From assembly GCA_964525555.1 (NCBI GenBank), contig CAZGHN010000013.1, positions 1,144 through 65,143 on the forward strand: a stretch of 64,000 nt of DNA, in the 5' to 3' direction. The DNA comes from an uncultured bacterium (GTDB taxonomy: Bacteria > Hydrothermota > UBA3072). The position numbers were made by a program, and so were the translations under genes. Below the pieces are notes generated by a model. It saw only the letters and a list, made by a program, of their open reading frames with translations. It was not told where the DNA came from and did no database searches. Positions 9,963 to 64,000 of the stretch are shown here, piece after piece (within the stretch, counting starts at the first letter, position 1; every line of letters starts with the position of its first letter).

Positions 9963-11003
9963 TTAATTAATTGTTTCCTTAAGATTCAAAAACTTCAATG
10001 TTAAAATACCGCCAACGATGACAACTAAATGATAAGTGATAAACCGCCATAAAATTGTAAACATACCCACAAGATAATGCGGTACAGAAGATGAAAATAA
10101 AACCGCGAAGCCGCCTTCAACTATACCTTCTCCACCCGGTGTGGGGAAAAAGAAAGAGGCAAAGAGTACAAAAACTTGCCTGAATATTGTATCAATATAA
10201 GAAACTTCTATTGAGAGACCTTTTAGTATAAAATAGGCTATAGAGTAATTTGGTATATAAACAATAATGGTTGTAATAAGAATAGCTAAAGAATATAATT
10301 TTTTTTTCTTAAAAAACTCGAATAATTTATTTCTGCTTACTTTTACTTCTCTCAAAAAAAGGAATGTTCTCCTTGTTCCCCTGGTTTTTTCCCCTTTTCT
10401 AAAGGTAAGAGAATAAATTAGCCTTTTTAGGTATTTAGGCATAGAGAGAATCAGGAAAAGTAAACTAAAAAGAAAAAGGTAAGCAAATATAAAATATCGA
10501 GATAATATTTGCATTGACTTTCCCGAGTACTCCGCTGTAAAAAATGGTAATATAAAAGGAAGAAAAACTATCATGCCCGAAAGATAGAAAAGACCTCTGA
10601 GTAAGAGCAGAAGCAATGTATCGCTGATTTTTAATCCAGCCTTATAAAGTACGTAAACCTGTAGGGGTGAACCCCCTGCTTGAAAGGGGGTGACTGCTGA
10701 AAGGAAAGCTCCGCAGAATATAACCTGGGAGCATCGTCCGAAGGCTATCCATTTTCCGGTGAGCGCTTTGGCAATAAGCCTTATCCTGAAAGATTCAAAG
10801 GTAATATATAAAGAAAGTGAAATAAAAACGATCGGTAAATAAAGGATGTCTATTTTTTTAAATGCCTGCCATGTTTCCTTAGTTGCGGTAAAAGCCATGA
10901 GCAATGTATAAGTTATTATTGAGAGAGCTAGAAATATTTTCAGCCCTTTTATTATCGAAGCTCTGGATATTCTACTTTTTTCTGAGTAAGATTGATGGGT
11001 CAT
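9963..11003 (-). CDS. polytopic membrane protein (flippase-like / LPG-synthase-TM-like family)
   Basis: At least 8 predicted TM helices; resembles the UPF0104/lysylphosphatidylglycerol-synthase TM-region family; overlaps the upstream pcrB-like gene by 32 nt (operon coupling). Confidence 0.4.
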   Translation of the reverse strand: MTHQSYSEKSRISRASIIKGLKIFLALSIITYTLLMAFTATKETWQAFKKIDILYLPIVFISLSLYITFESFRIRLIAKALTGKWIAFGRCSQVIFCGAFLSAVTPFQAGGSPLQVYVLYKAGLKISDTLLLLLLRGLFYLSGMIVFLPFILPFFTAEYSGKSMQILSRYFIFAYLFLFSLLFLILSMPKYLKRLIYSLTFRKGEKTRGTRRTFLFLREVKVSRNKLFEFFKKKKLYSLAILITTIIVYIPNYSIAYFILKGLSIEVSYIDTIFRQVFVLFASFFFPTPGGEGIVEGGFAVLFSSSVPHYLVGMFTILWRFITYHLVVIVGGILTLKFLNLKETIN

Positions 11004-21372: not shown

Positions 21373-21715
21373 CGCGGAAACCCCAAACTAAAAAAAAGGA
21401 TCACCACAGAGAACACAGAGGAATCGATTGTGGTAAAAAAAGAAAAAACACTGAGAACACAGAGAAAAAAACAAAAGGAAATAGCCACGGATGAACACGG
21501 AAAAACAAGGATTAAAAAATTTATTCTTTTGTTTTAATAAAAAAAGTATATGGGAAGGGGTGGGTATCAGCGTTCATCAGCGTAAATCAGTGGCTAATTC
21601 AGATGTGCTGGCTTGGGTTTCGAAAACACAAAATGTAAACTCTTTGAACTCTGTGGTAAAAAAAATCGGTGTGGTGTTGTGTGGGCTCTGTGTTTAGTTT
21701 TTTTAATAAATAACT

Positions 21716-28854: not shown

Positions 28855-30162
28855 TTATCTCAAGAAAGATGAAAGAGCAGAAGGTCCTCCTCTTCCCTTC
28901 ATTTGTTTTATTAATTTTTGAGCCATCATGAATTCTTTAAGTAACCGGTTAATGTCTTGAACAGAAGTCCCACTTCCTTTCGCTATACGTTTCCTTCTTG
29001 ATCCGTTCAATATGGAAGGATTTTTTCGCTCCTTTGGCGTCATAGATTGAATAATAGCTTCGGTTTTTATCATCTGTTTTTCATCCATTAACTTCTTTAA
29101 GCCTTTTCCTCCCGGAAACATATCAAGAATAGCATCGAGCGGCCCCATTTTCTTTAATTGTTTTATCTGACCCAAAAAATCTTCCAGATCGATTTTCCCT
29201 TCCTGAATCTTCTTATGAAATTTTTCTACGTCTTCCTTCTCGATAGCTTTTTCCGCCTTTTCCTGAAGAGTTTTCAAATCTCCCATTCCTAGAATTCTCG
29301 AAGCAAGTCTCTCCGGGTGCAGAACTTCAAGAGCATCTGCTTTCTCTCCTATACCTATAAATTTTATCGGTTTGCCCGTAACTTTCCTCATCGAAAGCGC
29401 AGCTCCACCCCTTGCATCACCATCCATCTTGGTAAGAATAATACCGGTTATCCCTAAAGCTTCCTCAAATTCTCTTGCAATATTTACAGCATCCTGCCCT
29501 GTCATCGAGTCCGCTACCAGGAGAATCTCGGAAGGATTAACCGTATCTTTTACTTTTTTAATCTGTTCTATCATTTCCTTATCAATATGAAGCCTTCCGG
29601 CTGTATCGAATATAAGAGTATCGTACCGCTTAAGTATAGAACGTGTAAGAGCCTGTTTGCAAAGTTTTACTTCATTATCGAATCTCTCGGAAAAATAAGG
29701 AAGGTTTTCTCTCTCTGCCATATCGCGAAGCTGTTCGAAAGCTGCGGGCCTTTTAACATCAGCAGGAATAAGAAAAGGGCTTCTTCCTTTACTCTTTAAG
29801 AAACTTCCTAGCTTTATCGCTGTGGTTGTTTTTCCCGATCCCTGCAGGCCCACGAGCAAAATAGAAGTCGGCTGTTTATCCAGCATAAGCGGCTCTGATT
29901 TCCCTATTAACCCTATAAGTTTTTCTCCAACAATTTGAATTATCATCTCGGCAGGAGTAAAACTATCATATATTTTTCGCTTCACCGCTTCGTTTTCAAC
30001 TTCGGTAACAAAACTCTGAGCTACATTCAAATTCACATCTGCCTCAAGCAGAGCTTTTCTTATATCTCTCATACTTTCTTTAACCTGCGAAGCCGAAAGC
30101 CTTCCTTTGCCTGAGAGATTCCTCGCTATATCTTTTATCCTTTCGTTTAATTTATCAAACAT
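28855..30162 (-). CDS. ffh: signal recognition particle protein Ffh
   Basis: N-terminal domain, G-domain with GLQGSGKTTT, and a C-terminal M-domain. Confidence 0.95.
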   Translation of the reverse strand: MFDKLNERIKDIARNLSGKGRLSASQVKESMRDIRKALLEADVNLNVAQSFVTEVENEAVKRKIYDSFTPAEMIIQIVGEKLIGLIGKSEPLMLDKQPTSILLVGLQGSGKTTTAIKLGSFLKSKGRSPFLIPADVKRPAAFEQLRDMAERENLPYFSERFDNEVKLCKQALTRSILKRYDTLIFDTAGRLHIDKEMIEQIKKVKDTVNPSEILLVADSMTGQDAVNIAREFEEALGITGIILTKMDGDARGGAALSMRKVTGKPIKFIGIGEKADALEVLHPERLASRILGMGDLKTLQEKAEKAIEKEDVEKFHKKIQEGKIDLEDFLGQIKQLKKMGPLDAILDMFPGGKGLKKLMDEKQMIKTEAIIQSMTPKERKNPSILNGSRRKRIAKGSGTSVQDINRLLKEFMMAQKLIKQMKGRGGPSALSSFLR

Positions 30163-32260: not shown

Positions 32261-32713
32261 AAAAAGGATTAGAAGTAGTGCAAGTAAGCCATTCAAGGAT
32301 TAAGTGATAAGTGGTAGGTTTTTTCTAACCCTTGCTTTTCATAATTAATGTTTTTAATTCATCATTCAAAATTAATAATTCAAAATTATTATAGTCCTTA
32401 ATCCTAGCTTGACTTCTTGCTTTTCTACTAATTCCTGCCTGACCCATTAAACTTGCTTCAAGAAGTCCTCTTGACACAGCAGCTTAGAAGCTTTATACTA
32501 TTAATAAACACAATGATAGCAATTTTTACTATTCCACTATTAAAATATTAGAAACCTACCCTAAGAAATACAAAAAAAATCGGATGGAAGGGTAAGAAGA
32601 TAGTATACTTGAAAAATGGAAACGTTAAAAAAAGATAGAAAAAATTATTACCAGTTCTTCGAAGATAAAAACTTTTTATAAAGACAAAAATAAAATATAT
32701 AATAAGGAGATAG

Positions 32714-34078
32714 ATGGCATCCTTTTATTTCTCGACTCATCTAACAATTAAACAAACTCTAATGAAAAAAATCCTACTCATTTCTTATTTGGTATTTGCC
32801 TTGCTAAGTGCTTCCGGTCAAACAACTATCTCAGTAATTAAACCATACGGTGGAAGAGTTGATTGGCGCACCACCAATAATCAAATAGCTTATGATATGA
32901 CTGACCTTAGTGGTTACTTCAATGTCTACAAAACCGACACAAGCGGTATTCCTACCATTAACATTACAAACAAACCAAATGCGCCGCAGAAACATAAGGG
33001 AAATCCTACTTGGCATCCATCAGGCGATTGGATTATCTTTCAAGCAGAAATCGACACAATTCCAGATCTGCTTGACCCCGTTGCAACCCCAGGAATAGGT
33101 GCCTATAATAATTTGTGGGCGACCGATAGCGCTGGAAATCAATTCTGGCAACTTACTTTTCTTCCTCCAACTTTTCCAGCTACAGGTGTCTTGCACCCGC
33201 ATTTTTCAAATAATGGCACCAAAGTAGTTTGGGCGCAAATGTTAGATAACTCAGGGCCTAATAATAATTGGTTTATAAAGATTGCCGATTTTGTTGTGAC
33301 CTCAGGAGTGCCTTCACTTCAAAACATTCAGACACTTCATCCGGGAACAACATTTCCAACCTTATACGAAACACATGGATTTTCTCCTGGTGATAGTATC
33401 ATTACGTTTTCCTCAACAATAAATAATCCAAGGTTATATGAATGGGATGTATTTACTTATAACCTCAATTCTTCTCAGCTAACAAATTTAACCAACTCAA
33501 CAGACTGGGATGAATTTGCTTCTATTTCACCAGAAGGAACTAAAATAGTTTGGGCTACAAGCAAAAATATCACATGGGATACAGCATATATTGAATCTCT
33601 TAGAATGGAATGGTGGCAAATGGATGTAAATGGAGACAATAAAACTCAACTCACTCATTTCAACACAGTCGGATTTCCCGAATACACCCCGGGTAGAAAT
33701 ACCGCAGCTGATCTTAGCTGGGGAACGACAGGCAATGAGTTTATAGGACTTGTGCAGGGCAATAATCCTGCTTTTGGAAAAGATGTAAAAGTAACAATCA
33801 ATACTACAGGATTGAATGATGTAACAATTGACAATGAAATATTAATTAGAATTTTTCCAAACCCTTTTACATATTTTACAACTTTTTCATTTGGTACCAC
33901 TGTAGTAAATGCTGAGATAAACATTTACAACTCTTGTGGAGAAAAAGTAAAAACAATAAATCATATTTCTGGAGACAGAATATTAATATTTAGAGAAAAT
34001 TTATGTCAAGGGATTTACTTTTATGAATTGAAGCAGGATAAATATATTTTCACCGGCAAGTTACTAATTGTTGACTAA
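32714..34078 (+). CDS. secreted PD40/beta-propeller-like protein with T9SS C-terminal domain
   Basis: Signal peptide; C-terminal …IFPNPFTYFTTFSFG…INIYNSCGEKVKTI…GIYFYELK… CTD. Confidence 0.55.
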   Translation: MASFYFSTHLTIKQTLMKKILLISYLVFALLSASGQTTISVIKPYGGRVDWRTTNNQIAYDMTDLSGYFNVYKTDTSGIPTINITNKPNAPQKHKGNPTWHPSGDWIIFQAEIDTIPDLLDPVATPGIGAYNNLWATDSAGNQFWQLTFLPPTFPATGVLHPHFSNNGTKVVWAQMLDNSGPNNNWFIKIADFVVTSGVPSLQNIQTLHPGTTFPTLYETHGFSPGDSIITFSSTINNPRLYEWDVFTYNLNSSQLTNLTNSTDWDEFASISPEGTKIVWATSKNITWDTAYIESLRMEWWQMDVNGDNKTQLTHFNTVGFPEYTPGRNTAADLSWGTTGNEFIGLVQGNNPAFGKDVKVTINTTGLNDVTIDNEILIRIFPNPFTYFTTFSFGTTVVNAEINIYNSCGEKVKTINHISGDRILIFRENLCQGIYFYELKQDKYIFTGKLLIVD

Positions 34079-34739: not shown

Positions 34740-37752
<3,013 letters not shown>

Positions 37753-37830: not shown

Positions 37831-38085
37831 TTATAGCCACTGATTCTCACGGATAAACACGGATTCCCTACCCATCCCAAAACTAATCTTTATGTACAAC
37901 AATATAGTTTAAGAAAACAGTGTGTCTCAGTGTTAATCCGTAACCAATTATTCGGTGGTGCGAGGTCGGGTTTTAAACAAACAAAAATCTTTTTTGTTTT
38001 TCTCTGTGTTACTCTGTGTCCTCTGTGGTTCAAAATTTTGGGGTGCAAAATCTTGACATTTAATTCGTATTAAATATTTTAAAAT

Positions 38086-38493
38086 ATGGAGCAAACTTTA
38101 CTTCTAATAAAACCTGACGCTATAGAAAGAAAACTTATAGGCAAAATAATTTCTCGTTTAGAAGAAACATCACTTCGAATTTTAAACATAAAAATGGTTA
38201 TGTTTACAAGAGAAATGACTGAACAATTTTATGGCGAACACAAGGGCGAAGAGTTCTACGAGAGACTTATCAATTACATGGCAAACAAAAAAGTCGTTGC
38301 TTTAAGACTGGAAGGAATGGAAGCGATAAAAACCTTAAGAAATTTAGTCGGGGCAACAGACCCGAAGAAAGCAGAAAAAAACACAATACGGGCGGACTTT
38401 GGCCTTGGAACGCCTCAAAACAGTGTCCACGCCTCGGATTCGGCTAAATCCGCGGAAAGGGAGATTGAATTCTTCTTCGGGGAAAACTTTTGA
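38086..38493 (+). CDS. ndk: nucleoside diphosphate kinase
   Basis: LLLIKPDA…, NTIRADFG…NSVHASDS (active-site His). Confidence 0.9.
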   Translation: MEQTLLLIKPDAIERKLIGKIISRLEETSLRILNIKMVMFTREMTEQFYGEHKGEEFYERLINYMANKKVVALRLEGMEAIKTLRNLVGATDPKKAEKNTIRADFGLGTPQNSVHASDSAKSAEREIEFFFGENF

Positions 38494-40638: not shown

Positions 40639-40863
40639 ACCCAACCACACCAATTAGTTTCGTATTTTTAATTACCAATATACTTTTTTGTCTTTTTCTC
40701 TGTGGTCTCTGTGTCTCCGTGTGAGAATAATTTGGGCTGTGGGTTGGGAAAAACAACAAAAATTTTCCTGTGTTCTCTGTGTGTTTTGTTTTTCTCTGTG
40801 GCCTCTGTGGTAAATATTCTTGTAAAGATTGCGAAAATCAAACCAAATTACTATAATTCGCAT

Positions 40864-41943
40864 ATGATAAAAGAATCAAATCTTCTTAAATTATCGAACA
40901 TCAAAATGAAATCTTCGAGATTAAAAAAGATCATCATCCGTAACGAAAATTTTCTCGAGGAAAAAGATTTCATTGAAAGACTTATCGAAAATGAAGAGAT
41001 ACGAAAAGAAGAAATATTAAAATCCAATAAAATTTCTCTCCTCGAAAAGCAACTTCGGATATTAAACAACCAGGATGTCAGAATACTTACAATATTCGAT
41101 AAAGACTATCCTTCAAATTTGACAAAATTAGAAGATGCTCCGCCTATTCTTTATTGCAGAGGAAATCTTTTACCAAAAGACGAATGTGCAGTATCAATCG
41201 TTGGGACGAGAAATGCGACGGATTATGGTAGGAACGTTACAAGAACACTGGCAAAAAAACTTGCAGAACATGGAATTACGATTGTAAGCGGTATGGCAAT
41301 GGGTATCGACACCCAGGCCCACATGGGGGCCCTCGAAGGCATAGGAAGAACCCTGGCTGTAATGGGAACAGGAATAGACTTGGTTTATCCTGCCTCCAAC
41401 AGAAACCTCGCAAAGAAGATTGCGGAAAACGGCTGTCTGATAACGGAACTCTCCCCCCTTTCACCTCCTCTACCATATCACTTTCCCTCAAGGAATAGAA
41501 TTATAAGCGGACTTTCCAAAGCTGTTATCGCGGTAGAAGCCGGAGAGAGAAGTGGAGTCTTTTCTACGGTAAAATGGGCGCTGGATTATGGAAGAGATGT
41601 GTACGCCTTACCAGGAGACATTTACAGAAAAGTCTCGGAAGGTACAAATAAACTGATAAAAAACGGCGCGATACCTTTGACAAGCTATAAAGATATCCTG
41701 GAAAACACCAACTTCAAAATCAAAGAAGAAAAAAAAGAAGAAATTATAAAAAAACTTCCCGACTTAAACGAGCATGAAAAATTAGTCTACGAAGCCCTTG
41801 AGCAAAAACCAAAAAGTACAGATATACTGGCAGGAGAAACAAACCTTTCACCACAGATTATTATGACTACTATAGCTTTACTTGAACTCAAAGGTCTATC
41901 AAGAGAAATTCCGGGTAAAAGATTTATACGAGAGGAACAATGA
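40864..41943 (+). CDS. dprA: DNA processing protein DprA (Smf)
   Basis: …ILYCRGN…VSIVGTRNATDYG…VSGMAMGIDTQAH… Rossmann-like DprA core; I prefer the internal ATG at 40864 over the 40702 start, which runs through an intergenic repeat array. Confidence 0.8.
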   Translation: MIKESNLLKLSNIKMKSSRLKKIIIRNENFLEEKDFIERLIENEEIRKEEILKSNKISLLEKQLRILNNQDVRILTIFDKDYPSNLTKLEDAPPILYCRGNLLPKDECAVSIVGTRNATDYGRNVTRTLAKKLAEHGITIVSGMAMGIDTQAHMGALEGIGRTLAVMGTGIDLVYPASNRNLAKKIAENGCLITELSPLSPPLPYHFPSRNRIISGLSKAVIAVEAGERSGVFSTVKWALDYGRDVYALPGDIYRKVSEGTNKLIKNGAIPLTSYKDILENTNFKIKEEKKEEIIKKLPDLNEHEKLVYEALEQKPKSTDILAGETNLSPQIIMTTIALLELKGLSREIPGKRFIREEQ

Positions 41944-50213: not shown

Positions 50214-50500
50214 AAAATTACCTCCTTACTATTTTGCTAATACGTTAAAATACATTAACTTATACTACTTATATACACATATTTAGCCTCTATGTCAAGG
50301 GTATTTCCTAAAAACTACTACAAAAAAACAAAAACAATTTTACCACAGAGTGCACAGAGAGACACAGAGTATTTATAGTTTTAATTCAAAATTAATAATT
50401 CAAAATTATTAATTTTTGACTCATAACACACGACTAATGACTAGCAGCGCTTCGCACCGAACCTCTTGACATACTGTCAGGGCGGGCCTAATATCTACTT

Positions 50501-50716
50501 ATGATTAAAGACGATAATTGGGATATTCTTCTAAAAACAAACCCTAACGAGGCCGAAATTTTTCGGGGTATACTTGAGACCAACGGAATAGAAGCTAAAC
50601 TTGAACAGGAAGCTGTAGGGAAAATATATGGGTTAACCACAGACGGGCTTGGTGAGGTAAAAATATATGTTCCTAAAGACCAATTAGAAGAAGCAAAAAA
50701 AATAATCGAAGTATAA
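50501..50716 (+). CDS. small DUF2007-like protein
   Basis: 71 aa; ORF and family-level pattern only. Confidence 0.35.
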   Translation: MIKDDNWDILLKTNPNEAEIFRGILETNGIEAKLEQEAVGKIYGLTTDGLGEVKIYVPKDQLEEAKKIIEV

Positions 50717-55503: not shown

Positions 55504-55590
55504 TTTGCCACAAAGTCACTAAGATACAAAGAATCAAAGGAGTCCTGAGCTAGAAAAATGACAGCCAACCACGGATGGTAACTTGAAAAG

Positions 55591-56724
55591 GTGAATAACG
55601 TAACGATTAAATTAAACCCATTACATATTGCCTGTATCTTTGCGATTTTTCAAGCTCTATTAATGGCGATTTTCCTTTTTACCAGCAAAAAGGGTAATAA
55701 ACATAGCAACATAATCCTGGGTTTCTGGTTTCTAAGTTTTGCAGTGATGATGTCCTGTTATTTCACTTTAAGCATTGGGGTTTGGCAATACTTCCTAAAT
55801 TATCATAAATCTATTTTCATTGTAAGTCAATTGTCTCTTCTTATTGGGCCTTTATTGTATTTTTATACAAAATCATTATTGGATCAAAATTTTCGTTTTA
55901 GAAGAATTGATTTAAGTCATTTATTGCCATTCATAACAGTTGTTTGTTATATAATCGTAAGACTGATTTTTATAGAACATTTTGCTATTTGGAGGCATCC
56001 CCTAGATGTCTTTAGCAACGGGGCTTTCTTAACTCAAATCTCCGTCTATTACATTTTAATCCTGAATTTATTAAAGTCACATGGAACTTCCATTAAAACA
56101 TTCTTTTACAATAAAAGAGACTTAAAGTATAACTGGATTCGGCTTTTACTTATCGGTTCATTGGTTATATGTATTGCAAAGTTACAATCTCTTTTGATCT
56201 TATTCTTACCGGAAATTCCTAATTGGTGTTCTTATACAGCTACCGTTTACTTTTTATCCTTATTTCTATTCCTTACTTTAGTAGTCTATGTATCTCTAAA
56301 AATACCTGATCTTCATTCATTTAGAAAAAAATATCTAAATTCAGTCTTATCGGGAACAGATAAGCTAAAACTTAAAAATAAATTGTTAGAATATATGGGT
56401 AAAGAAAAACCTTATCTGAATCCAGATTTAAAACTGGATATTCTTGCCCAGAACTTATTAATTCCAGCAAAGTATCTTTCTCAGATCATCAATGAAATGT
56501 TTCATCAAAATTTTTACGATTTTATTAATCAATATCGGGTTAAAGAGTGCATCAACTCCCTGAAGGACGAAAAGAACTCCAGAAAGACTCTCTTAAGCAT
56601 TGCTTTCGAGTGTGGTTTTAATACAAAAGCTACGTTTAATTCCGCATTTAAAAAATTTACAGGAGAAACTCCCACGGAATTCAGAAAAAACAATAATTTA
56701 AATAACAATTTTAATATCAAGTAA
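55591..56724 (+). CDS. membrane-anchored (7-TM) AraC-family transcriptional regulator, copy 1
   Basis: Seven hydrophobic helices in the first ~230 aa; C-terminal AraC HTH (…ECGFNTKATFNSAFKKFTGETPTEFRK); GTG start. Confidence 0.7.
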   Translation: MNNVTIKLNPLHIACIFAIFQALLMAIFLFTSKKGNKHSNIILGFWFLSFAVMMSCYFTLSIGVWQYFLNYHKSIFIVSQLSLLIGPLLYFYTKSLLDQNFRFRRIDLSHLLPFITVVCYIIVRLIFIEHFAIWRHPLDVFSNGAFLTQISVYYILILNLLKSHGTSIKTFFYNKRDLKYNWIRLLLIGSLVICIAKLQSLLILFLPEIPNWCSYTATVYFLSLFLFLTLVVYVSLKIPDLHSFRKKYLNSVLSGTDKLKLKNKLLEYMGKEKPYLNPDLKLDILAQNLLIPAKYLSQIINEMFHQNFYDFINQYRVKECINSLKDEKNSRKTLLSIAFECGFNTKATFNSAFKKFTGETPTEFRKNNNLNNNFNIK

Positions 56725-56904
56725 GAATCGATAAAAAAGTAAAAATTCATCCAGTTTGTCGACATTTTTTCTCCTTTGAATACAATTAACATAATAAGGG
56801 AAAACCCGGGTTAAATTACAAAAAAGCTAATAAATAAGTTGAATGAGGAAATGGAGTTTGCCCTGTGTATCTAATCAGTTTTAGAATTTAAAAGGAGGTT
56901 TAAA

Positions 56905-58110
56905 ATGGTCAGAAAAGAATTGTTGGTTTTTATGTTATTAGGTATTTCATCTTTATGTCATGCTCAGAATCCATCCGGTCCGTACTTCGGACAGACCCCT
57001 CCGGGTTCGACACCGGAAATTTTCGCTCCCGATTTTATCTCGGTTGACGGAAGATTCGAGCAGAATGCCGCTTTTACACCCGACGGCAAAGAATTTTATT
57101 TCAGCACTACAACCAGCAACTGGGACGGGTTTAGCATTTATTATACAAAGGAAATTGATAGTATATGGTCAGATCCTAAACTTGCCGATACGATATTTGG
57201 CTTCTATGGTAATACCGAACCGTTTATAACCAGTGATGGGCAAAGATTGTTTTTCGTTTCACCGCGTCCTTCGGCACCACCATGGAATACAGATATATGG
57301 GTGTGTGAACGTGACGACACGACCTGGTCTTCCCCTGTAAAAGTTGATTCTCCTCTGGTCAGCTCGACCAATAGGGAATGGCATCCCACAGTAAGTCTTG
57401 ATAGTACTTTATATTTTCAATCTTTAAATCGACCCGGTGGCTACGGTGCTGCAGATATATATAAAGCCGAATTGGATAGCGCAGGACAGTATTCGATTGT
57501 TGAGAATCTTGGGGACATTATTAATTCGAGCTACGGAGATGGTGAAGCTACAATCGCTCCCGATGAAAGTTTTCTTATCTTCTCTTCATATAGACCGGGT
57601 TACGGAGAATCTGATATATATATTTCGTTTAACGATAATGACTCTTGGACAACACCAATAAACTTAGGCCCTACAATAAATACAAGCCAGGCGGAATATG
57701 GTATGGCCCTTTCTCCCGATGGCTTATATATGTTTTTTACAAGAAGAGAAGCATGGCAAACTACTGAAGATTCCGATCTCTGGTGGGTCAGTACAAGTTT
57801 TATAGATTCTATAAAAAGCGGAATTGCAATTGAAAATCCAGAATATTTTGAATTAAATCAAAATTATCCCAATCCTTTTTATTCCTCGACTGTGATTTCG
57901 TATTCCTTGTCCAAACCCGCATCGGTGGTAGAACTAAGCGTATATGATGTACTGGGAAGTAAGGTTCGGACTTTTGTTGAGGTAACTCAGGTTGCAGGAA
58001 ACTACAATGTTCTTTTTGATGCAAAAAATCTTTCGGCAGGGGTATATTTCTACAATCTGAGTGTCGATGAGGTCCTTTCCGAAAAGAAGAAAATGCTGTT
58101 TTTACGATAG
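56905..58110 (+). CDS. secreted PD40/TolB-like beta-propeller protein with T9SS C-terminal domain, copy 1
   Basis: Signal peptide; repeated …PDG.…FF.S.R… PD40-like blades; C-terminal NYPNPFYSSTVISYSLSKPASVVELSVYDVLGSKV…AGVYFYNLSV…KKKMLFLR; strong RBS AAAGGAGG. Confidence 0.65.
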   Translation: MVRKELLVFMLLGISSLCHAQNPSGPYFGQTPPGSTPEIFAPDFISVDGRFEQNAAFTPDGKEFYFSTTTSNWDGFSIYYTKEIDSIWSDPKLADTIFGFYGNTEPFITSDGQRLFFVSPRPSAPPWNTDIWVCERDDTTWSSPVKVDSPLVSSTNREWHPTVSLDSTLYFQSLNRPGGYGAADIYKAELDSAGQYSIVENLGDIINSSYGDGEATIAPDESFLIFSSYRPGYGESDIYISFNDNDSWTTPINLGPTINTSQAEYGMALSPDGLYMFFTRREAWQTTEDSDLWWVSTSFIDSIKSGIAIENPEYFELNQNYPNPFYSSTVISYSLSKPASVVELSVYDVLGSKVRTFVEVTQVAGNYNVLFDAKNLSAGVYFYNLSVDEVLSEKKKMLFLR

Positions 58111-58361
58111 AAAGTGATTGTTGTCGATCAGGCCGCATATTTGAGATGACAGAAAAACCGTAAGCGAGCCTTCTCAGATATACGGCCTGATATATATTGT
58201 CACAGAAACCCGTAGTTTTCTTTACTGCCAGTTGTTTTTTAATTCATAACTCTTATCCCTTTCCAATTCAAAATTCAACACTCAAAATTAAAAATTATCA
58301 ATCGGTGCGAAGCATCCCCACCCCCTTGACATATTACCCTATTTTCGGGTATAATATAAAT
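58111..58361 (+). repeat. conserved intergenic module (stem-loop + AT-rich TTCAAAATT repeats + TCGGTGCGAAGC + TTGACA-18-TATAAT), copy 1
   Basis: Near-identical sequence recurs at 60914-61162 and 63610-63947. Confidence 0.8.
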
Positions 58362-59498
58362 ATGAATGTGGTAATGATTAATTTAAATCTAATAGACATT
58401 GCCTGTGTTATTGCGATCTTTCAGGCTTTGTTAATGGCTGTTTTCTTTTTTACCAGCAAAAAGGGTAGGAAACAGAGCAACATAATTTTAGGATTCTGGC
58501 TTTTAAGTTTTGCAATTATTCTAACCAGTTACTTTCTTGTAAGTTATTGGGTTTGGCAATACTTCCTAAATTATCATAAATCTATTTTCGTTTTAAGTCA
58601 ATTTTCCCTTCTGATTGGACCTCTATTATACTTTTATACACTGTCGTTATTAGACGAAAAATTTCGTTTCCGAAAGAGAGATTTAATTCACTTATTACCA
58701 TTTGTAATTCTTACTTTTTATTTAATGGTCAGATTTATTTTTATCAGTGATTTTACAATTATTGAGAGTTTTTCGGATTTCCTTTGTAATGGCCTCTTTT
58801 TAGTACAGAACCTATTCTATTACATTCTAATTTTGAAGTTATTAAAGTTACATGAACTTTCTATAAAAACATTCTTCGCCAATAAAAGAGATTTAAAGTA
58901 TAATTGGATCCGGTTTTTAATGATCGGCTCATTTGTTATATGGATCGCAAAGTTGCAATCTTTTTTATTCTGGTTAAAACCAGTAAATCCTAGTTGGTGT
59001 TGTTACACGTCTACAGCTTGTTTTTTGGCCGCATTTTTATTTGTTAATTCGATAGTTTATATATCTTTAAAAATACCTAATCTTTTTTTGTTTAACAAAA
59101 AATATGTGTATTCAAGTTTATCGGAAACAGATAAACTGAATTTGAAAACTCAATTGTTAAAATATATGAACGAAGAAAAGCTTTATCTGGATCCAAATTT
59201 AAATTTAGAAACGCTTGCAAAAAAAATATCGGTTACCAGAGAACATCTTTCGCAAATCATAAATGAAATGTGTAATCAAAATTTTTACGATTTTGTTAAT
59301 CAATATCGTGTCAAGGAATGCATCGGCTGCTTAAAAGATGGAAATAATGGCAAGAAAACTCTTCTGCGAATCGCCCTCGAATGCGGTTTTAGCTCAAAGG
59401 CTACCTTCAATTCCGCCTTCAAAAAATTCACAGGAGTGACTCCAAAAGAATTCAGAAACGGAAACTTTAGTTTCAAGGAAGAATTAATAAAAAGATAA
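58362..59498 (+). CDS. 7-TM AraC-family transcriptional regulator, copy 2
   Basis: Aligns with copies 1 and 3 from MNVVMINLNLIDIACVIAIFQALLMA…; ATG lies 6 nt after the -10 hexamer (leaderless); the ORF-track start at 58197 is rejected. Confidence 0.7.
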   Translation: MNVVMINLNLIDIACVIAIFQALLMAVFFFTSKKGRKQSNIILGFWLLSFAIILTSYFLVSYWVWQYFLNYHKSIFVLSQFSLLIGPLLYFYTLSLLDEKFRFRKRDLIHLLPFVILTFYLMVRFIFISDFTIIESFSDFLCNGLFLVQNLFYYILILKLLKLHELSIKTFFANKRDLKYNWIRFLMIGSFVIWIAKLQSFLFWLKPVNPSWCCYTSTACFLAAFLFVNSIVYISLKIPNLFLFNKKYVYSSLSETDKLNLKTQLLKYMNEEKLYLDPNLNLETLAKKISVTREHLSQIINEMCNQNFYDFVNQYRVKECIGCLKDGNNGKKTLLRIALECGFSSKATFNSAFKKFTGVTPKEFRNGNFSFKEELIKR

Positions 59499-59735
59499 TA
59501 ATCCATTTGTCTTGGTCCTCTAAAAAGTAGAAATACTACTCAATAACTTTTTTAATATCATATAAAAAATCTATAAAAAGGTGTGCCTACATGTAGTTTG
59601 TCGACAACGTTTTGTCTTTTTATTATAATTGTAAAAAAAGGAGAAAACCGTCTTAAATGGCTATCTTAATAAAGTACTGTGATATAAAGAAAAAGTTTTG
59701 GCCGAATTTAAAAACCAATAAAAGGAGGTTTAAAA

Positions 59736-60913
59736 TGGTTAGAAAAAGATTGTTTATGGTTTTATTTTTAGTTTTTTCGTGGGTTTGTTTCGCTCAGGAC
59801 TATTTTGGGCAAACTCCACCCGGTGACTCAGCCATAGTTTTTGCTCCCGGCATAGTTTCGTTAGAAGGCAGGTATGAGTATTGTCCTGCGTTCTCTCCCG
59901 ACGGCAATCAATTTTACTTCGGAGTAACAAACTCGAATTGGAGCCATTGTGATATATGGGTTACAGAATATAGAGATAGCCAATGGACAACCCAGGAAAA
60001 GGTTTCTATACTGGACAGTCTTGATGGCTGGATCCCCTACATCAGTCCTGATGGAGCAACGTTTTATCTTAGTTCAGCTTATCCATCATGGCCACCCGCT
60101 AACATATGGAAATGTGACATAATAAATGACACCCTGAAAAACTTAACAAAACTTGATGCTCCCATAAACTCTAATTCTAATGAATGGAGGGTGGGCGTTA
60201 GTAATGATAGTATGATGGTTTTTTGTTCAAACAGAAGTGGTACCTTGGGCGAGCAGGATTTGTATTATGCGATTCCGGATGGAGGGACCTATACAACTGC
60301 AATAAACTTTGGCGACCCTGTAAATAGCAGCTATAACGATGCTTCGGTTTATATAGCTCCGAACGGAAGTTACATCATGTTTGAATCGGAAAGACCGGGT
60401 GGTTATGGTCAGTCAGATATCTATATTTCCTTTAAAGTAGATGATAGTACATGGTCAAACCCACAAAACATGGGCCCAACTATTAACACTTCATATATCG
60501 AAGATCTACCTTCTATAACACCCGATGGTCAATATCTAATGTTTTGCAGGAGAGAAGCATGGGTAACGTCGGAAGATACCGATATTTGGTGGATTAGCGC
60601 AAGCATTATTGATTCTTTACAAAGCGGCATTGATCTTCCGGAATCCCGAAATTTCAAATTGAGTCAAAACTATCCTAACCCTTTTAACTCCAGAACTGTG
60701 ATTTCGTACTCTATATCCAAACCCGCATCGGTAGAATTAAATGTATACGATGTTCTGGGGAATAAGGTCCGGACTTTGGTTAATGAAACCCAGTCAGCAG
60801 GGGACTATGATGTCCCCTTTGATGCAAATAATCTTTCAGCAGGTGTTTATTTCTGTAAGCTGAGTGTCGATGGGGTCTTTTCAGAAAAGAAGAAAATGTT
60901 GTTTTTGCGTTAG
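59736..60913 (+). CDS. secreted PD40-like beta-propeller protein with T9SS CTD, copy 2
   Basis: Start chosen at MVRKRLFMVLFLVFS… after RBS AAAGGAGG, same as copy 1; CTD …NYPNPFNSRTVISYSISKPASVELNVYDVLGNKV…KKKMLFLR. Confidence 0.65.
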
Positions 60914-61162
60914 GTGACGATTGTTGATCAGGTCGTATATTTGAGATGACAGAAAAACCGTAAGCGAGCCTTCTCAGATATGCGGCCTGATATATATTGT
61001 CACAGAAACCCGGAGTTTTCTTTACTGCCAGCTGTTTTTTAATTCATAACTCTTATCCCTTTCCAATTCAAAATTCAACACTCAAAATTAAAAATTATCA
61101 ATCGGTGCGAAGCATCCCCTCCCCCTTGACATCCCACCCTGTTTCCGAGTATAATATAAAAA
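60914..61162 (+). repeat. conserved intergenic module, copy 2
   Basis: Over 85% identical to 58111-58361 by eye, including the promoter TTGACA(61126)-18-TATAAT(61150). Confidence 0.8.
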
Positions 61163-62296
61163 ATGAATAATATAGTAATTAAATTAAGTCTAATAGATAT
61201 TGCCTGTATTGTTGCCCTTTTTCAAGCTCTATTAATGGCTATTTTCCTTTTTACCAGCAAAAAGGGTAATAGGCAGAGTAATAGAATTTTAGGTTTCTGG
61301 CTTTTAAGTTTTACAATTCTAATGGGTTCTTCTTTCCTTTTGAGTTATGGGGTTTCGGATTACTTCATGAATTATCATAAATTAATTTTCGTTATGAGTA
61401 AATTTTCTCTGTTAATTGCCCCGCTATTTTACTTCTATATACTATCCTTATTGAACGAAAATTTTCGTTTTAGAAAAATAGATTTAGTTCACTTATTACC
61501 GATGATAATTATTATCTGTTACAGCAGTATCAAATTTATTTTTATAACAGATTTTATCATCTGGAAGAGTTTTCTTGATTTCTTTTGTGATGGGCTTTTC
61601 TTACTTCAAAATTTATTCTATTACTTTCTGGTCTTGAAAATATTAAAGTCACATGGGATTTCAATCAAGACATTCTTCTCCGGTAGAATGGGTCTAAAGT
61701 ATAATTGGATTCGTTTTCTAATCATTGGCTCATTTGTTGTATGGATTGCAAAGTTACAATCTTTTACATTAAAGATCATAGCAAGAGGCGTAAAGTGGTG
61801 TGTTTATTCGGCAACCTCCTATTTTATGGCGTTGTTTTTATTTGTTACTTTGATAATCTATGTCTCTCTCAAAACACCCGTTTTCCTTTTGTTCAAGAAA
61901 AAATACGTAAATTCAAATTTGTCGAAAAAGGATAAATTAAAACTTAAAAACCAATTGTTAAAATATATGAACGAGGAAAAACTTTATCTGGATCCAACCT
62001 TAAGTTTAGACATACTTGCAAAGAAATTATCAGTTTTACCAAAACATCTTTCTCAGATTGTAAATGAAATGTTTCTTCAAAATTTCAATGATTTCGTTAA
62101 TCAATATCGTGTTAAGGAGTGTATTAACTGCCTAAAGGATGAAAACAACGGCGAAAAGACTCTGCTCCGAATTGCTTTTGAGTGTGGTTTCAATACAAAG
62201 GCTACGTTTAATGCTGCGTTTAAAAAATTTGCCGGAGTAACTCCTAAAGAGTTCAGAAAAAATAATCACTTAAATAATGATTTCAATGTCAAGTAA
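61163..62296 (+). CDS. 7-TM AraC-family transcriptional regulator, copy 3
   Basis: MNNIVIKLSLIDIACIVALFQALLMAIFLFTSKKGN…; AraC HTH at the C-terminus; ATG 7 nt after the -10 (leaderless). Confidence 0.7.
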   Translation: MNNIVIKLSLIDIACIVALFQALLMAIFLFTSKKGNRQSNRILGFWLLSFTILMGSSFLLSYGVSDYFMNYHKLIFVMSKFSLLIAPLFYFYILSLLNENFRFRKIDLVHLLPMIIIICYSSIKFIFITDFIIWKSFLDFFCDGLFLLQNLFYYFLVLKILKSHGISIKTFFSGRMGLKYNWIRFLIIGSFVVWIAKLQSFTLKIIARGVKWCVYSATSYFMALFLFVTLIIYVSLKTPVFLLFKKKYVNSNLSKKDKLKLKNQLLKYMNEEKLYLDPTLSLDILAKKLSVLPKHLSQIVNEMFLQNFNDFVNQYRVKECINCLKDENNGEKTLLRIAFECGFNTKATFNAAFKKFAGVTPKEFRKNNHLNNDFNVK

Positions 62297-62448
62297 GAGC
62301 TGATAAGAAAGTAAAATTTCATAACTTTTGTCGACTTTTCTCCCCCTTTTTGATATCATGACTAAAAGGGGAAAAATCCCGACTTAATAAAACATAAGTA
62401 TTTTCCCCCGCATACTTGGCGAAAAATAAAACCTAAAAGGAGGGTTAT

Positions 62449-63609
62449 ATGTTTAACAAGAAGTTGTATGTTGCTTTATTGCTGGGGGTCTCAATAGTAA
62501 GTTTTGCTCAGATTCCCGATGGCCCTTATCTTGGGCAGACCCCGCCAGGTTCGACACCGGAGGTTTTCGCTCCCGCTCTTGTTTCTATAATCGGCAGAAG
62601 AGACACAAAAGCAGTATTTTCACCAGATGGACAGGAATGTTTCATCGGAACAGTCATAAGTCACACATTTACACTTTTATATACAAAAATAGACTCCGGA
62701 CATTGGTTAGACTTTGCAGATGCAAACTTTTTGAGTGTAACTGGAAAACGAGAACCTTTTATTACGCCAGACGGGGAGAAACTCTTTTTTATAGGAGATT
62801 GGGCGGATGTCTACGTTTCGACAAAATCAGGAAACCAATGGTCGGCAGCTTCTAAAGTGGGCAATCCCATCAGCACAGGTGCAGAAGAATGGCATCCAAC
62901 AGTGACTTTGGATGGTACATTATATTTCTGTTCAACCAGAGACGGAGACTATTTTATTTATCGCTCCAGATTAAATGAGGGGGAATACACCGAGGTAGAA
63001 AAACTGGACAGCACAATAAATTCTCCTTCATACGGTGCCTGGGATCCTTATATTTCTCCCGACGAAAGTTATATGATATTCAGCTCCGAGCGTCCGGGTG
63101 GCTATGGTAATGTCGATCAATATATCAGTTACTTAAGCGAAGATAGCATATGGAGTGAACCGCAAAATCTTGGATCGGTAATCAATACAAGTGCTATAGA
63201 ATATGGCTCATATGTAAGCTATGACGGAAATTACTTCTTTTTTAGCAGGCCGGAAGGCTGGGGACCGGATATAGAGGCTGATATTTTTTGGGTAGATACT
63301 GCTGCCATACCAGCGGGAATAAATGACTTCAATGAACTCCCAAACAATTTTAAATTGAGACAAAATTACCCCAACCCTTTTAATTCCAGGACTGTGATTT
63401 CTTATTCTATATCCAAACCCGCATCTGTAGAACTAAACGTGTATGATGTACTTGGAACTAAAGTCCGGACTTTAGTTAATGAATGCCAGGATGCAGGGAA
63501 CCATGAGGTTCCTTTTGACCCGAAGAACCTTTCAGCAGGTGTTTATTTTTATAAGTTGAGTGTAGATGGAGGGTCTTCAGAAAAAAAGAAGATGCTGTTT
63601 TTACGATAG
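62449..63609 (+). CDS. secreted PD40-like beta-propeller protein with T9SS CTD, copy 3
   Basis: Shares the N-terminal …GPYLGQTPPGSTPEVFAP… and C-terminal CTD with copies 1 and 2. Confidence 0.65.
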   Translation: MFNKKLYVALLLGVSIVSFAQIPDGPYLGQTPPGSTPEVFAPALVSIIGRRDTKAVFSPDGQECFIGTVISHTFTLLYTKIDSGHWLDFADANFLSVTGKREPFITPDGEKLFFIGDWADVYVSTKSGNQWSAASKVGNPISTGAEEWHPTVTLDGTLYFCSTRDGDYFIYRSRLNEGEYTEVEKLDSTINSPSYGAWDPYISPDESYMIFSSERPGGYGNVDQYISYLSEDSIWSEPQNLGSVINTSAIEYGSYVSYDGNYFFFSRPEGWGPDIEADIFWVDTAAIPAGINDFNELPNNFKLRQNYPNPFNSRTVISYSISKPASVELNVYDVLGTKVRTLVNECQDAGNHEVPFDPKNLSAGVYFYKLSVDGGSSEKKKMLFLR

Positions 63610-63947
63610 AAAGTGATTGTTGTCGATCAGACCGCATATTTGAGATGACAGCAAAACCGTAAGCGAGCCTTCTCAGATATGCGGCCTGATTTTTTGCAAC
63701 AAAAACACGAAGATAAGCCGCTGTCGGCCAATCGACGAGCATCTAATTGTAAATTTAAAATTTAGAAAAGGAAATAGAATCTGTATTTATTTGCGTTCTA
63801 ATCGTGTTTTTAAATTCAAAATTCATAATTCAACATCCAAAATTAACATCGTTCAACATTCAAAATTATCAATCGGTGCGAAGCATTCCCTCCCCCTTGA
63901 CATCTTACCCTATTTTCAAGTATACTATTAACAAAACGGAGGGAATT
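63610..63947 (+). repeat. conserved intergenic module, copy 3 (followed by a different gene with a leader and RBS)
   Basis: Same stem-loop, TTCAAAATT repeats, TCGGTGCGAAGC and TTGACAT elements; then ACGGAGGG RBS and an ATG at 63948. Confidence 0.7.
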
Positions 63948-64000
63948 ATGTTTGAATTACCTGAAATTGTGAATTTTACAAAACAATTTAATGAAACTTT
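63948..64000 (+). CDS. 5' fragment of a gene (MFELPEIVNFTKQFNET…), truncated by the window end
   Basis: ATG 8 nt after a GGAGGG RBS downstream of the copy-3 promoter module. Confidence 0.3.
   Translation, partial: MFELPEIVNFTKQFNET

Follow-up and report, generated by a model that had tools for sequence, protein, structure and literature searches.

A consensus promoter positioned for predicted leaderless AraC transcripts recurs between tandem AraC-PD40 cassettes of an uncultured bacterium

Why should the non-coding DNA behind two tandemly repeated genes be almost the same when the flanking paralogues have diverged widely, and how are the regulator genes that follow this DNA expressed? This question is raised by the 3' end of a stretch of 64,000 nucleotides (contig CAZGHN010000013.1 of assembly GCA_964525555.1, positions 1,144 to 65,143; hereafter the window), which holds three tandem cassettes, each made of an AraC-type regulator and a secreted protein with a PD40 beta-propeller and a C-terminal sorting domain of the type IX secretion system (T9SS). 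The regulators are AraC1 (55591-56724) and, both on the forward strand, AraC2 (AraC paralogue 2, 58362-59498) and AraC3 (AraC paralogue 3, 61163-62296), and the secreted proteins are PD40_1 (56905-58110), PD40_2 (59735-60913) and PD40_3 (62449-63609). All three regulators carry PF12833 (HTH_18, or HTH_AraC) at their C-terminus (E 1e-15 to 1e-16), as is characteristic of the AraC/XylS family, and each of them begins with about six hydrophobic segments. The spacers studied here, IG1 (58111-58361), IG2 (60914-61162) and IG3 (63610-63947), each directly follow one PD40/T9SS gene. The original prediction had presented them as one near-identical module, with a promoter placed for leaderless AraC transcripts and a shared operator. 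Our analysis leads to a reading that we regard as probable, in which a hairpin of the PD40 genes would be joined to a leaderless-type AraC promoter, leaderless expression would be a general mode in this genome, and IG1 and IG2 would have been homogenised from a promoter family.

Aligned over 252 columns, IG1 and IG2 have 231 matches, 17 mismatches and 4 gap columns (93% identity), and three differences only can be read off the alignment in their central ~130 nt. Near-identity thus holds for this pair and fails for IG3, which has in common with them a 78-nt hairpin block (~90%) and the last ~100 nt (~82%), its middle ~110 nt being unrelated. In IG1, a heptamer array, (AATTCAA)~4.6 according to Tandem Repeats Finder (TRF), spans 58265-58296, at about -98 to -62 from the predicted start. 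It is followed on the forward strand by the 12-mer TCGGTGCGAAGC, AT and the C-run CCCCACCCCC (58302-58325), which abut the -35 hexamer on its upstream side, and by a promoter (58326-58355) made of TTGACA (58326-58331), an 18-nt spacer and TATAAT (58350-58355), that is, 12 of 12 consensus positions. Within the 12-mer, GCGAAGC (58307-58313) is a heptamer known for its unusually stable DNA mini-hairpin, TGCGAAGCA providing the 3-bp stem and GAA loop. IG2 repeats this order on the same strand, with its array at 61065-61096, the 12-mer at 61102-61113 and the C-run (together 61065-61125), ahead of a second 12/12 promoter, TTGACA-18-TATAAT (61126-61155). The promoter half of IG3 (63812-63926, forward strand) contains heptamer arrays, the 12-mer (63873-63884), TTGACA (63897-63902), the 18-nt spacer and, as -10 hexamer, TATACT (63921-63926); the C-run with TTGACAT-18-TATAAT that had been assigned to every spacer is therefore present as such in IG1 and IG2, the -10 of IG3 departing from it. 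This third promoter leads to an fpg-like gene (start region 63938-63950, forward strand) through a short leader of ~15 nt with a Shine-Dalgarno site (GGAGGG, 63938-63943) before the ATG at 63948; an orthologous gene (MFELPE...), annotated Fapy_DNA_glyco, is carried by the related locus L081. Positions 58282-58378 and, on the fpg side, 63853-63949 are 82% identical over 97 ungapped nt. The direct repeats formerly described as TTCAAAATT do exist, in the form of period-7 (AATTCAA) arrays, which TRF also finds at 63812-63844, 32355-32388 and 50382-50414; the TTCAAAATT element at 32 kb starts at 32365 rather than 32369, and another string that had been quoted, AATTCAAAATTAAAAATTAT, is not contiguous in the sequence.

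The position of the two regulator genes relative to these promoters carries the argument. The ATG of AraC2 lies 6 nt behind TATAAT and that of AraC3 7 nt behind it, within the range of 5-9 nt for a TANNNT box, and the bases in between (ATAAAT and ATAAAAA, respectively) include no Shine-Dalgarno sequence, in contrast to the PD40 genes, which have AAAAGGAGG Shine-Dalgarno sites; on all these points the original description was accurate. Bacterial leaderless genes are recognised by a -10 (Pribnow) box at a distance of 6-8 nt from their start codon (PMC6028130, PMC3160421, PMC12340547). The ATGs at 58362 and 61163 would be the true starts, since the N-termini are conserved among the paralogues and 18 homologues and the next methionine, M25, falls inside the first hydrophobic segment, which starts at residue ~10-13: AraC1, AraC2 and AraC3 align from Met1-Asn2, and the 18 AraC homologues begin at the same position or five residues later (MNN... 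or MKLN...). In-frame stops stand four codons before the AraC1 start and one codon before that of AraC3. The NCBI model of AraC2 (P0006, 433 aa) begins at a TTG (58197), with the spacer and the promoter read as coding sequence; its 55-aa N-terminal extension, in frame in IG1 only and not in IG2, is by this comparison an annotation artefact, the likely start being the ATG at 58362. Comparable start mis-calls were seen in the related loci L082 (9945, reverse strand) and L081 (12758).

Further support comes from two orthologues of AraC3, one in L096 (93% nucleotide identity, synonymous divergence dS 0.28) and the other, directly after dapA, in L097/L098 (83%, dS 0.56). The promoters of L096 and L097 both read TTGACAT-17-TATAAT-ACAAAAA-ATG, with the hexamers unchanged, a spacer that is still 18 nt long and again 7 nt between the -10 and the ATG; six promoter-spacer bases differ between the window and L096. 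A functional placement of the ATG relative to the promoter would be expected to leave such a pattern. Taken together, these observations support in silico a consensus sigma-70-type promoter placed for leaderless AraC2 and AraC3 transcripts. The last ~100 nt of the spacer would act as a housekeeping sigma-70-type promoter, with TTGACA as -35, an 18-nt spacer and TATAAT as -10; as the A of the AraC ATG lies 7-8 nt beyond the -10, RNA polymerase would start at the AUG or 1 nt before it, and ribosomes would bind directly to the 5'-terminal AUG of a regulator mRNA with neither 5' untranslated region (UTR) nor Shine-Dalgarno sequence. These orthologues also bear on another explanation, in which AraC2 and AraC3 are expressed from leadered transcripts devoid of a Shine-Dalgarno sequence, through PD40 read-through or an upstream start, and the promoter position is a by-product of a duplication junction. 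Hairpin copies 1 and 2 without a U-tract, the leadered AraC orthologues of L081, L089 and L090, which have no Shine-Dalgarno sequence, and AraC1, which has a GTG start and no promoter of its own, would all agree with it. We nevertheless judge it quite improbable, given that the spacing from the -10 to the ATG is exact in the orthologues (dS 0.28 and 0.56) despite drift of the spacer, and that other gene starts of the window are likewise enriched in such geometry.

This enrichment comes from a scan in which all ATGs on both strands were scored for a -10 ending 5-9 nt upstream and a -35 at 16-18 nt, with a threshold of at least 10/12. Only 11 of the 1718 window ATGs reach it, and eight of these 11 open reading frames (ORFs) of at least 71 aa, at 97, 14240 (reverse strand), 31001, 38086, 40864, 50501, 58362 and 61163. 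The start at 38086 is that of ndk, with its canonical N-terminus, and the one at 50501 belongs to a DUF2007 gene. The signal is specific to ATG, as judged from control triplets opening long ORFs (GTG 0/2, TTG 1/4, CTG 0/1, AAG 1/10), and the most frequent distances between a strong promoter and an ATG that opens an ORF are 5-7 nt. As a negative control, we used 1.4 Mb of distant Bacteroidota and other loci from the AraC-alignment scan, in which the matches listed were only distant (at most 34% identity) Bacteroidota/Ignavibacteria-type relatives; the rate of leaderless geometry in the window is ~13 times higher. A crude classification gives 8-11 leaderless genes out of the 54 of the window (~15-20%), most others having GGAG-type sites. 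Given that long ORFs begin at eight of the 11 ATGs placed in this way, leaderless expression appears to be in general use in this genome and not confined to the AraC genes; leaderless genes would typically follow an intergenic gap, the remaining genes using GGAG-type Shine-Dalgarno sequences. The upstream region of the DUF2007 gene (50382-50503, forward strand) holds a (TAATTCAAAATTAA)x2.4 array, the word GACTAATGACTAG, the inverted 12-mer (50449-50460) and TTGACA-17-TAATAT followed after 6 nt by the ATG at 50501, which makes it another predicted leaderless start. This gene and its inverted 12-mer had been correctly pointed out, but its leaderless start and the generality of the pattern had been missed. 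Further predicted leaderless starts, 5-9 nt past strong TTGACA/TATAAT-type promoters, lie at 30162 (reverse strand) and 51870, and the ORF 40702-41943 probably begins at the ATG at 40864.

The starts of the window resemble known bacterial leaderless genes in having TANNNT/TATAAT 5-9 nt before the ATG, no Shine-Dalgarno sequence and an upstream intergenic region of their own, and in coexisting with Shine-Dalgarno-led genes elsewhere in the same genome; their recurrence at other gene starts, as in genomes of group C, is seen within the window. They differ in adding a full consensus -35, whereas high-GC group C genomes mostly have TANNNT only, and in belonging to a low-GC (37%), uncultured lineage known here from its sequence.

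The long stem-loop announced for each spacer is present on the forward strand at 58127-58191 (17 nt past the PD40_1 stop), 60927-60991 (after PD40_2) and 63625-63691 (after PD40_3), with a 20-bp stem, a 25-nt loop and a stability of -31 to -33 kcal/mol (z about -5). TTTTTT follows copy 3 only, giving it the look of a canonical intrinsic terminator; copies 1 and 2 have no U-tract, and a terminator consensus scan called no copy. Related hairpins occur behind PD40 genes in L081 and L090, with substitutions that preserve G-U pairs on the forward (sense) strand. Because the L097 locus, where AraC comes directly after dapA, has the promoter without the hairpin, the latter would belong to the 3' end of the PD40 gene and not to the promoter. 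It is probably a terminator or stabiliser of the PD40 mRNA, and would insulate the downstream sequence. Like intrinsic (Rho-independent) terminators, it is a stable hairpin close behind a stop codon, with T6 in copy 3; its stem and loop are far larger than usual, and the U-tract is missing from copies 1 and 2.

Could the ~250 nt be conserved instead as a functional RNA, such as a small RNA derived from the 3' UTR or a cis-regulatory RNA, or as a gene for a small protein? The stable hairpin, which keeps G-U-compatible changes on the forward strand, and a TTG-initiated ORF (MSQKP...) found in IG1 and IG2 would fit such a function. Yet the covariance models of Rfam 15 gave no match in 58050-58420 even at E<=1, folding outside the hairpin is weakly better than that of shuffled sequences (z -2.5), and the central segment is missing in IG3 and in the orthologues. 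The MSQKP... ORF shares its frame with AraC2 but not with AraC3, does not occur in IG3 and has no Shine-Dalgarno sequence; its inconsistent frame and its absence from IG3 led us to discard a conserved small ORF in the spacer. A functional RNA or small-protein gene is thus very improbable, and the reading of a PD40 hairpin joined to an AraC promoter is retained.

The resemblance between IG1 and IG2 is at odds with the divergence of their surroundings. Between paralogues, dS is saturated, at 0.98-1.07 for the AraC genes and 1.4-2.3 for the PD40 genes, and third-position identity of the flanking paralogues is 0.55-0.75 up to the spacer borders, while 41 of the 42 positions upstream of the -35 are identical between IG1 and IG2. 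The orthologues do not keep this sequence, as purifying selection would require: the 41 nt upstream of the -35 form an AAATCCC heptamer array in L096 and consist of GACTAATGACTGGTGACT-type words in L097, both unrelated to the array and 12-mer of the window (for L096, as counted manually on the alignment). For this reason, the identity of IG1 and IG2 is most readily explained by homogenisation or re-propagation that took place recently within the genome; gene conversion or re-propagation would have made them alike, rather than an operator under long-term selection. The flanking paralogues were inspected for a rise in synonymous identity toward the spacer, such as a gene-conversion tract should leave, and showed none, their identity staying at 0.55-0.75 to the borders. 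The element involved would be a member of a promoter family whose core recurs before unrelated genes and whose upstream blocks, namely the AATTCAA array, an AAATCCY array, GACTAATGAC words and TGCGAAGC with a C-run, would be interchangeable.

A spacer much less diverged than the flanking synonymous sites, with sharp borders, is also what would be left by a miniature mobile element carrying an outward promoter, of the MITE (miniature transposable element with inverted repeats), repetitive extragenic palindromic (REP) or Correia type, inserted independently behind each PD40 gene. Correia and enterobacterial repetitive intergenic consensus (ERIC) elements are precedents for promoter-bearing repeats (PMC3575422), and here too a promoter-bearing repeat family stands before unrelated genes in several genomes. 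The ends of the spacers speak against it, as the sole candidate for terminal inverted repeats, a weak 19-nt inverted match (58190-58208 with 58343-58361), is 74% complementary, AT-rich and absent in IG3. No target-site duplication was seen and no transposase lies nearby, the family members share a ~45-nt core and mosaic blocks without fixed ends, and in L096 and L097 neither the hairpin nor the middle segment accompanies the promoter that is joined to the AraC orthologue. We therefore regard such an insertion as unlikely and keep to homogenisation from a promoter family.

The turnover of the upstream blocks also bears on the proposal that TCGGTGCGAAGC and the TTCAAAATT repeats are sites of one regulator, perhaps AraC itself, coordinating AraC, fpg, DUF2007 and other genes. 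In its favour, the 12-mer stands directly upstream of the -35 in both independent occurrences, the AATTCAA array lies upstream of five strong promoters, a single TTCAAAATT is found 24 nt before the ndk promoter, and the block TGCGAAGCATCCCCACCCC-TTGACAT recurs in L082. The three module copies, with the 12-mer on the forward strand at 58302, 61102 and 63873, are a single event by descent, and the fourth 12-mer, at 50449, has the inverse orientation. Ten 12-mers of the module recur in the remainder of the window, with 4.6 expected (P=0.06), and for its GC-rich part alone the probability of at least one shared 12-mer is 0.08, so that sharing a 12-mer is near chance within the window and in itself nothing unusual. 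The array starts at variable distances, 24-106 nt, upstream of the -35; both blocks are missing from the AraC promoters of L096 and L097, which have unrelated word arrays in their place, and were not found in the ten scanned related loci L081-L090; and the genes concerned have no obvious functional link. A regulon is thus not supported, conservation at orthologous promoters and sharing beyond chance both being absent, and a common regulator of these sites seems distinctly unlikely. The UP element of sigma-70 promoters is an A/T-rich sequence at -40 to -60 contacted by the C-terminal domain of the RNA polymerase alpha subunit (alpha-CTD). The array of the window resembles it as an A/T-rich sequence upstream of a strong promoter and differs in lying at about -62 to -98, at a variable distance from the -35, and in being swapped for other arrays in the orthologues; -37 to -60 is occupied by the GC-rich 12-mer and the C-run. 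The operator or UP-element role, and with it the regulon, put forward in the original prediction accordingly finds no confirmation here.

The promoter core itself extends beyond the window. A search with the core pattern retrieved four metagenome contigs and a profile search additional copies, the aligned family core being CCCC-TTGACAT-YYY-ACCC-...-GTATAMT with mosaic upstream blocks. In L081 a GH10 gene has its ATG 7 nt behind this core, a start missed by the gene caller, and the N-terminus MHKKINTLVPVILLGLFSSSC predicted from this ATG resembles a signal peptide. Four copies within ~4 kb of L082 (9900-13460, reverse strand) each precede a different unrelated gene, coding for a small membrane protein, a 529-aa TPR protein, an unknown 174-aa protein and an ion-channel-like protein; one of them (10526-10594, reverse strand) reads TGATGCGAAGCATCCCCACCCC-TTGACAT, that is, the 12-mer core with the C-run, as in the block mentioned above. 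The core lies 11 nt before an ATG in L083/L084 (of an unknown gene in L083), and before rny, with a long leader, in L085, a contig of 48% GC. Two scans of viral contigs for the promoter core gave no match; matches to TGCGAAGCATYCCCNCCCC in viral contigs came from a single family of 62-64% GC contigs with no adjacent TTGACA and were set aside as chance. A dyad operator TACCC-N7-GGGTA in the promoter spacer was also rejected, ACCC being kept in nine of ten family members while the right half varies without covariation.

Putative mobile promoters, in which promoter-region DNA has spread in genomes by an unknown mechanism, have been surveyed before (Matus-Garcia, Nijveen and van Passel 2012; PMC3575422). 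The present family is similar in that alike promoter DNA precedes non-homologous genes within a genome (AraC and fpg) and also in several genomes (GH10, TPR, channel, rny); the 82% identity over 97 nt between the AraC2 and fpg promoters exceeds the threshold of at least 80% over at least 50 nt before non-paralogous genes. The promoter may have moved independently of the genes, its upstream blocks differing between orthologues and its core preceding unrelated genes. In contrast, that survey covered -150 to -50 and excluded paralogous neighbours, whereas here paralogues follow two of the three copies, conservation extends over the -10 and, in five cases, the start codon, and short tandem 'word' arrays form a mosaic in the upstream part. 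A ~45-nt unit (C-rich flank, TTGACAT, 18-nt spacer with ACCC, GTATAMT and, in several copies, the ATG) might even be a self-contained expression cassette, actively propagated with swappable heptamer blocks by an undescribed mechanism, and hence a new kind of mobile promoter rather than a product of convergent promoters and local gene conversion; we mention this as a speculative idea, which we think rather unlikely to hold.

Such arrays are dense in the intergenic regions, where 7-10-nt words such as CACAGAG(AG), CACGGATAAA, ATCAGCGTAA, AATTCAA and AAATCCY are repeated in tandem (window 21380-21600, 37848-38030, 40690-40810 and 50340-50415; L082 12660-12790; L097 530-760). Longer words are common to different samples, ACGCAGATAAACGCAGAT to L082 and L097 and GACTAATGAC to the window (50432) and L082. 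Cyanobacterial short tandemly repeated repetitive (STRR) sequences are heptanucleotide repeats and, like these, short tandem heptamer arrays restricted to intergenic DNA; they differ in sequence and lineage, the arrays of the window being tied to promoter-upstream regions.

Several points weigh against the reading that we favour. The whole case for leaderless expression is built from sequence, and a promoter with 12/12 consensus positions has a strength unusual for a regulator gene, its 18-nt spacer being suboptimal. Read-through from the PD40 genes could yield leadered transcripts, hairpin copies 1 and 2 being devoid of a U-tract. The AraC relatives of L081, L089 and L090 combine leaders of ~65 nt with another promoter, which would limit the leaderless layout to one branch of the AraC family. 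The tract of high identity ends near the gene borders, which is somewhat unexpected for random gene-conversion tracts, and the TGCGAAGC-C-run recurs in a second genome (L082) and may have a function. The lineage, finally, is assigned from a single named DapA match: the closest named relative of the window DapA is from a metagenome-assembled genome of candidate division WOR-3 (80% identity), a phylum now named Caldifarciminota by NCBI, and the low-GC (37%) bacterium of the window is therefore probably a member of WOR-3. A literature search found no publication linking leaderless genes with WOR-3.

The cassettes are preceded by glnA-dapB-dapA, and the AraC-PD40 region that follows dapA (window 55504-63947) varies among close relatives (DapA ~91% identical). 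No cassette is found in L086 (10876-12655) or L088 (9382-9977), L081 and L097 have at least one, and L090 has one AraC followed by two PD40-type genes, compared with three cassettes in the window; in the DapA-anchored contigs L086-L088 the AraC-PD40 cassette is entirely absent. Exact-protein look-ups with the AraC and PD40 proteins of the window and with the NCBI-only homologues P0006 and P0008 found no record. AraC1 has a GTG start and a spacer (55504-55593) without a promoter module of its own. This 87-nt spacer opens like the dapA-AraC spacer of L097 (GCCACAAAG.CACTAAGA.ACAAAGA) minus the ~200 nt bearing the promoter, and this resemblance suggests that the promoter-bearing part was deleted and that AraC1 would be expressed by read-through from dapA. 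Every AraC-to-PD40 spacer contains a conserved TTTGTCGAC(A/T) motif over a weak -35 (TCGACA-16/17-TAcAAT/TATAAT/TATCAT), at 56750-56790, 59595-59630 and 62325-62360 in the window and 1962-2000 in L097, followed by a ~100-nt leader and then a AAAAGGAGG site; we consider this region a candidate AraC-dependent promoter of the PD40 genes. Elsewhere, a lone 23S rRNA gene (34740-37751), with no 16S or 5S called within the window, lies downstream of a further PD40/T9SS gene (32714-34078) and of two TTGACA promoters (34528 and ~34664).

The leaderless arrangement is already known from other bacteria, and its finding in the window is real but fairly ordinary. It would place an uncultured lineage of low GC content, probably WOR-3, among the bacteria with regular use of leaderless mRNAs, and it would explain the mis-annotation of a start in a public protein model that translates its own promoter. 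It also indicates that, where non-coding DNA looks conserved between tandem paralogues, recent homogenisation can be the cause instead of an operator. A promoter family with interchangeable word arrays would offer a natural example of promoter reuse, which may be mined in the genomes and metatranscriptomes of this lineage.

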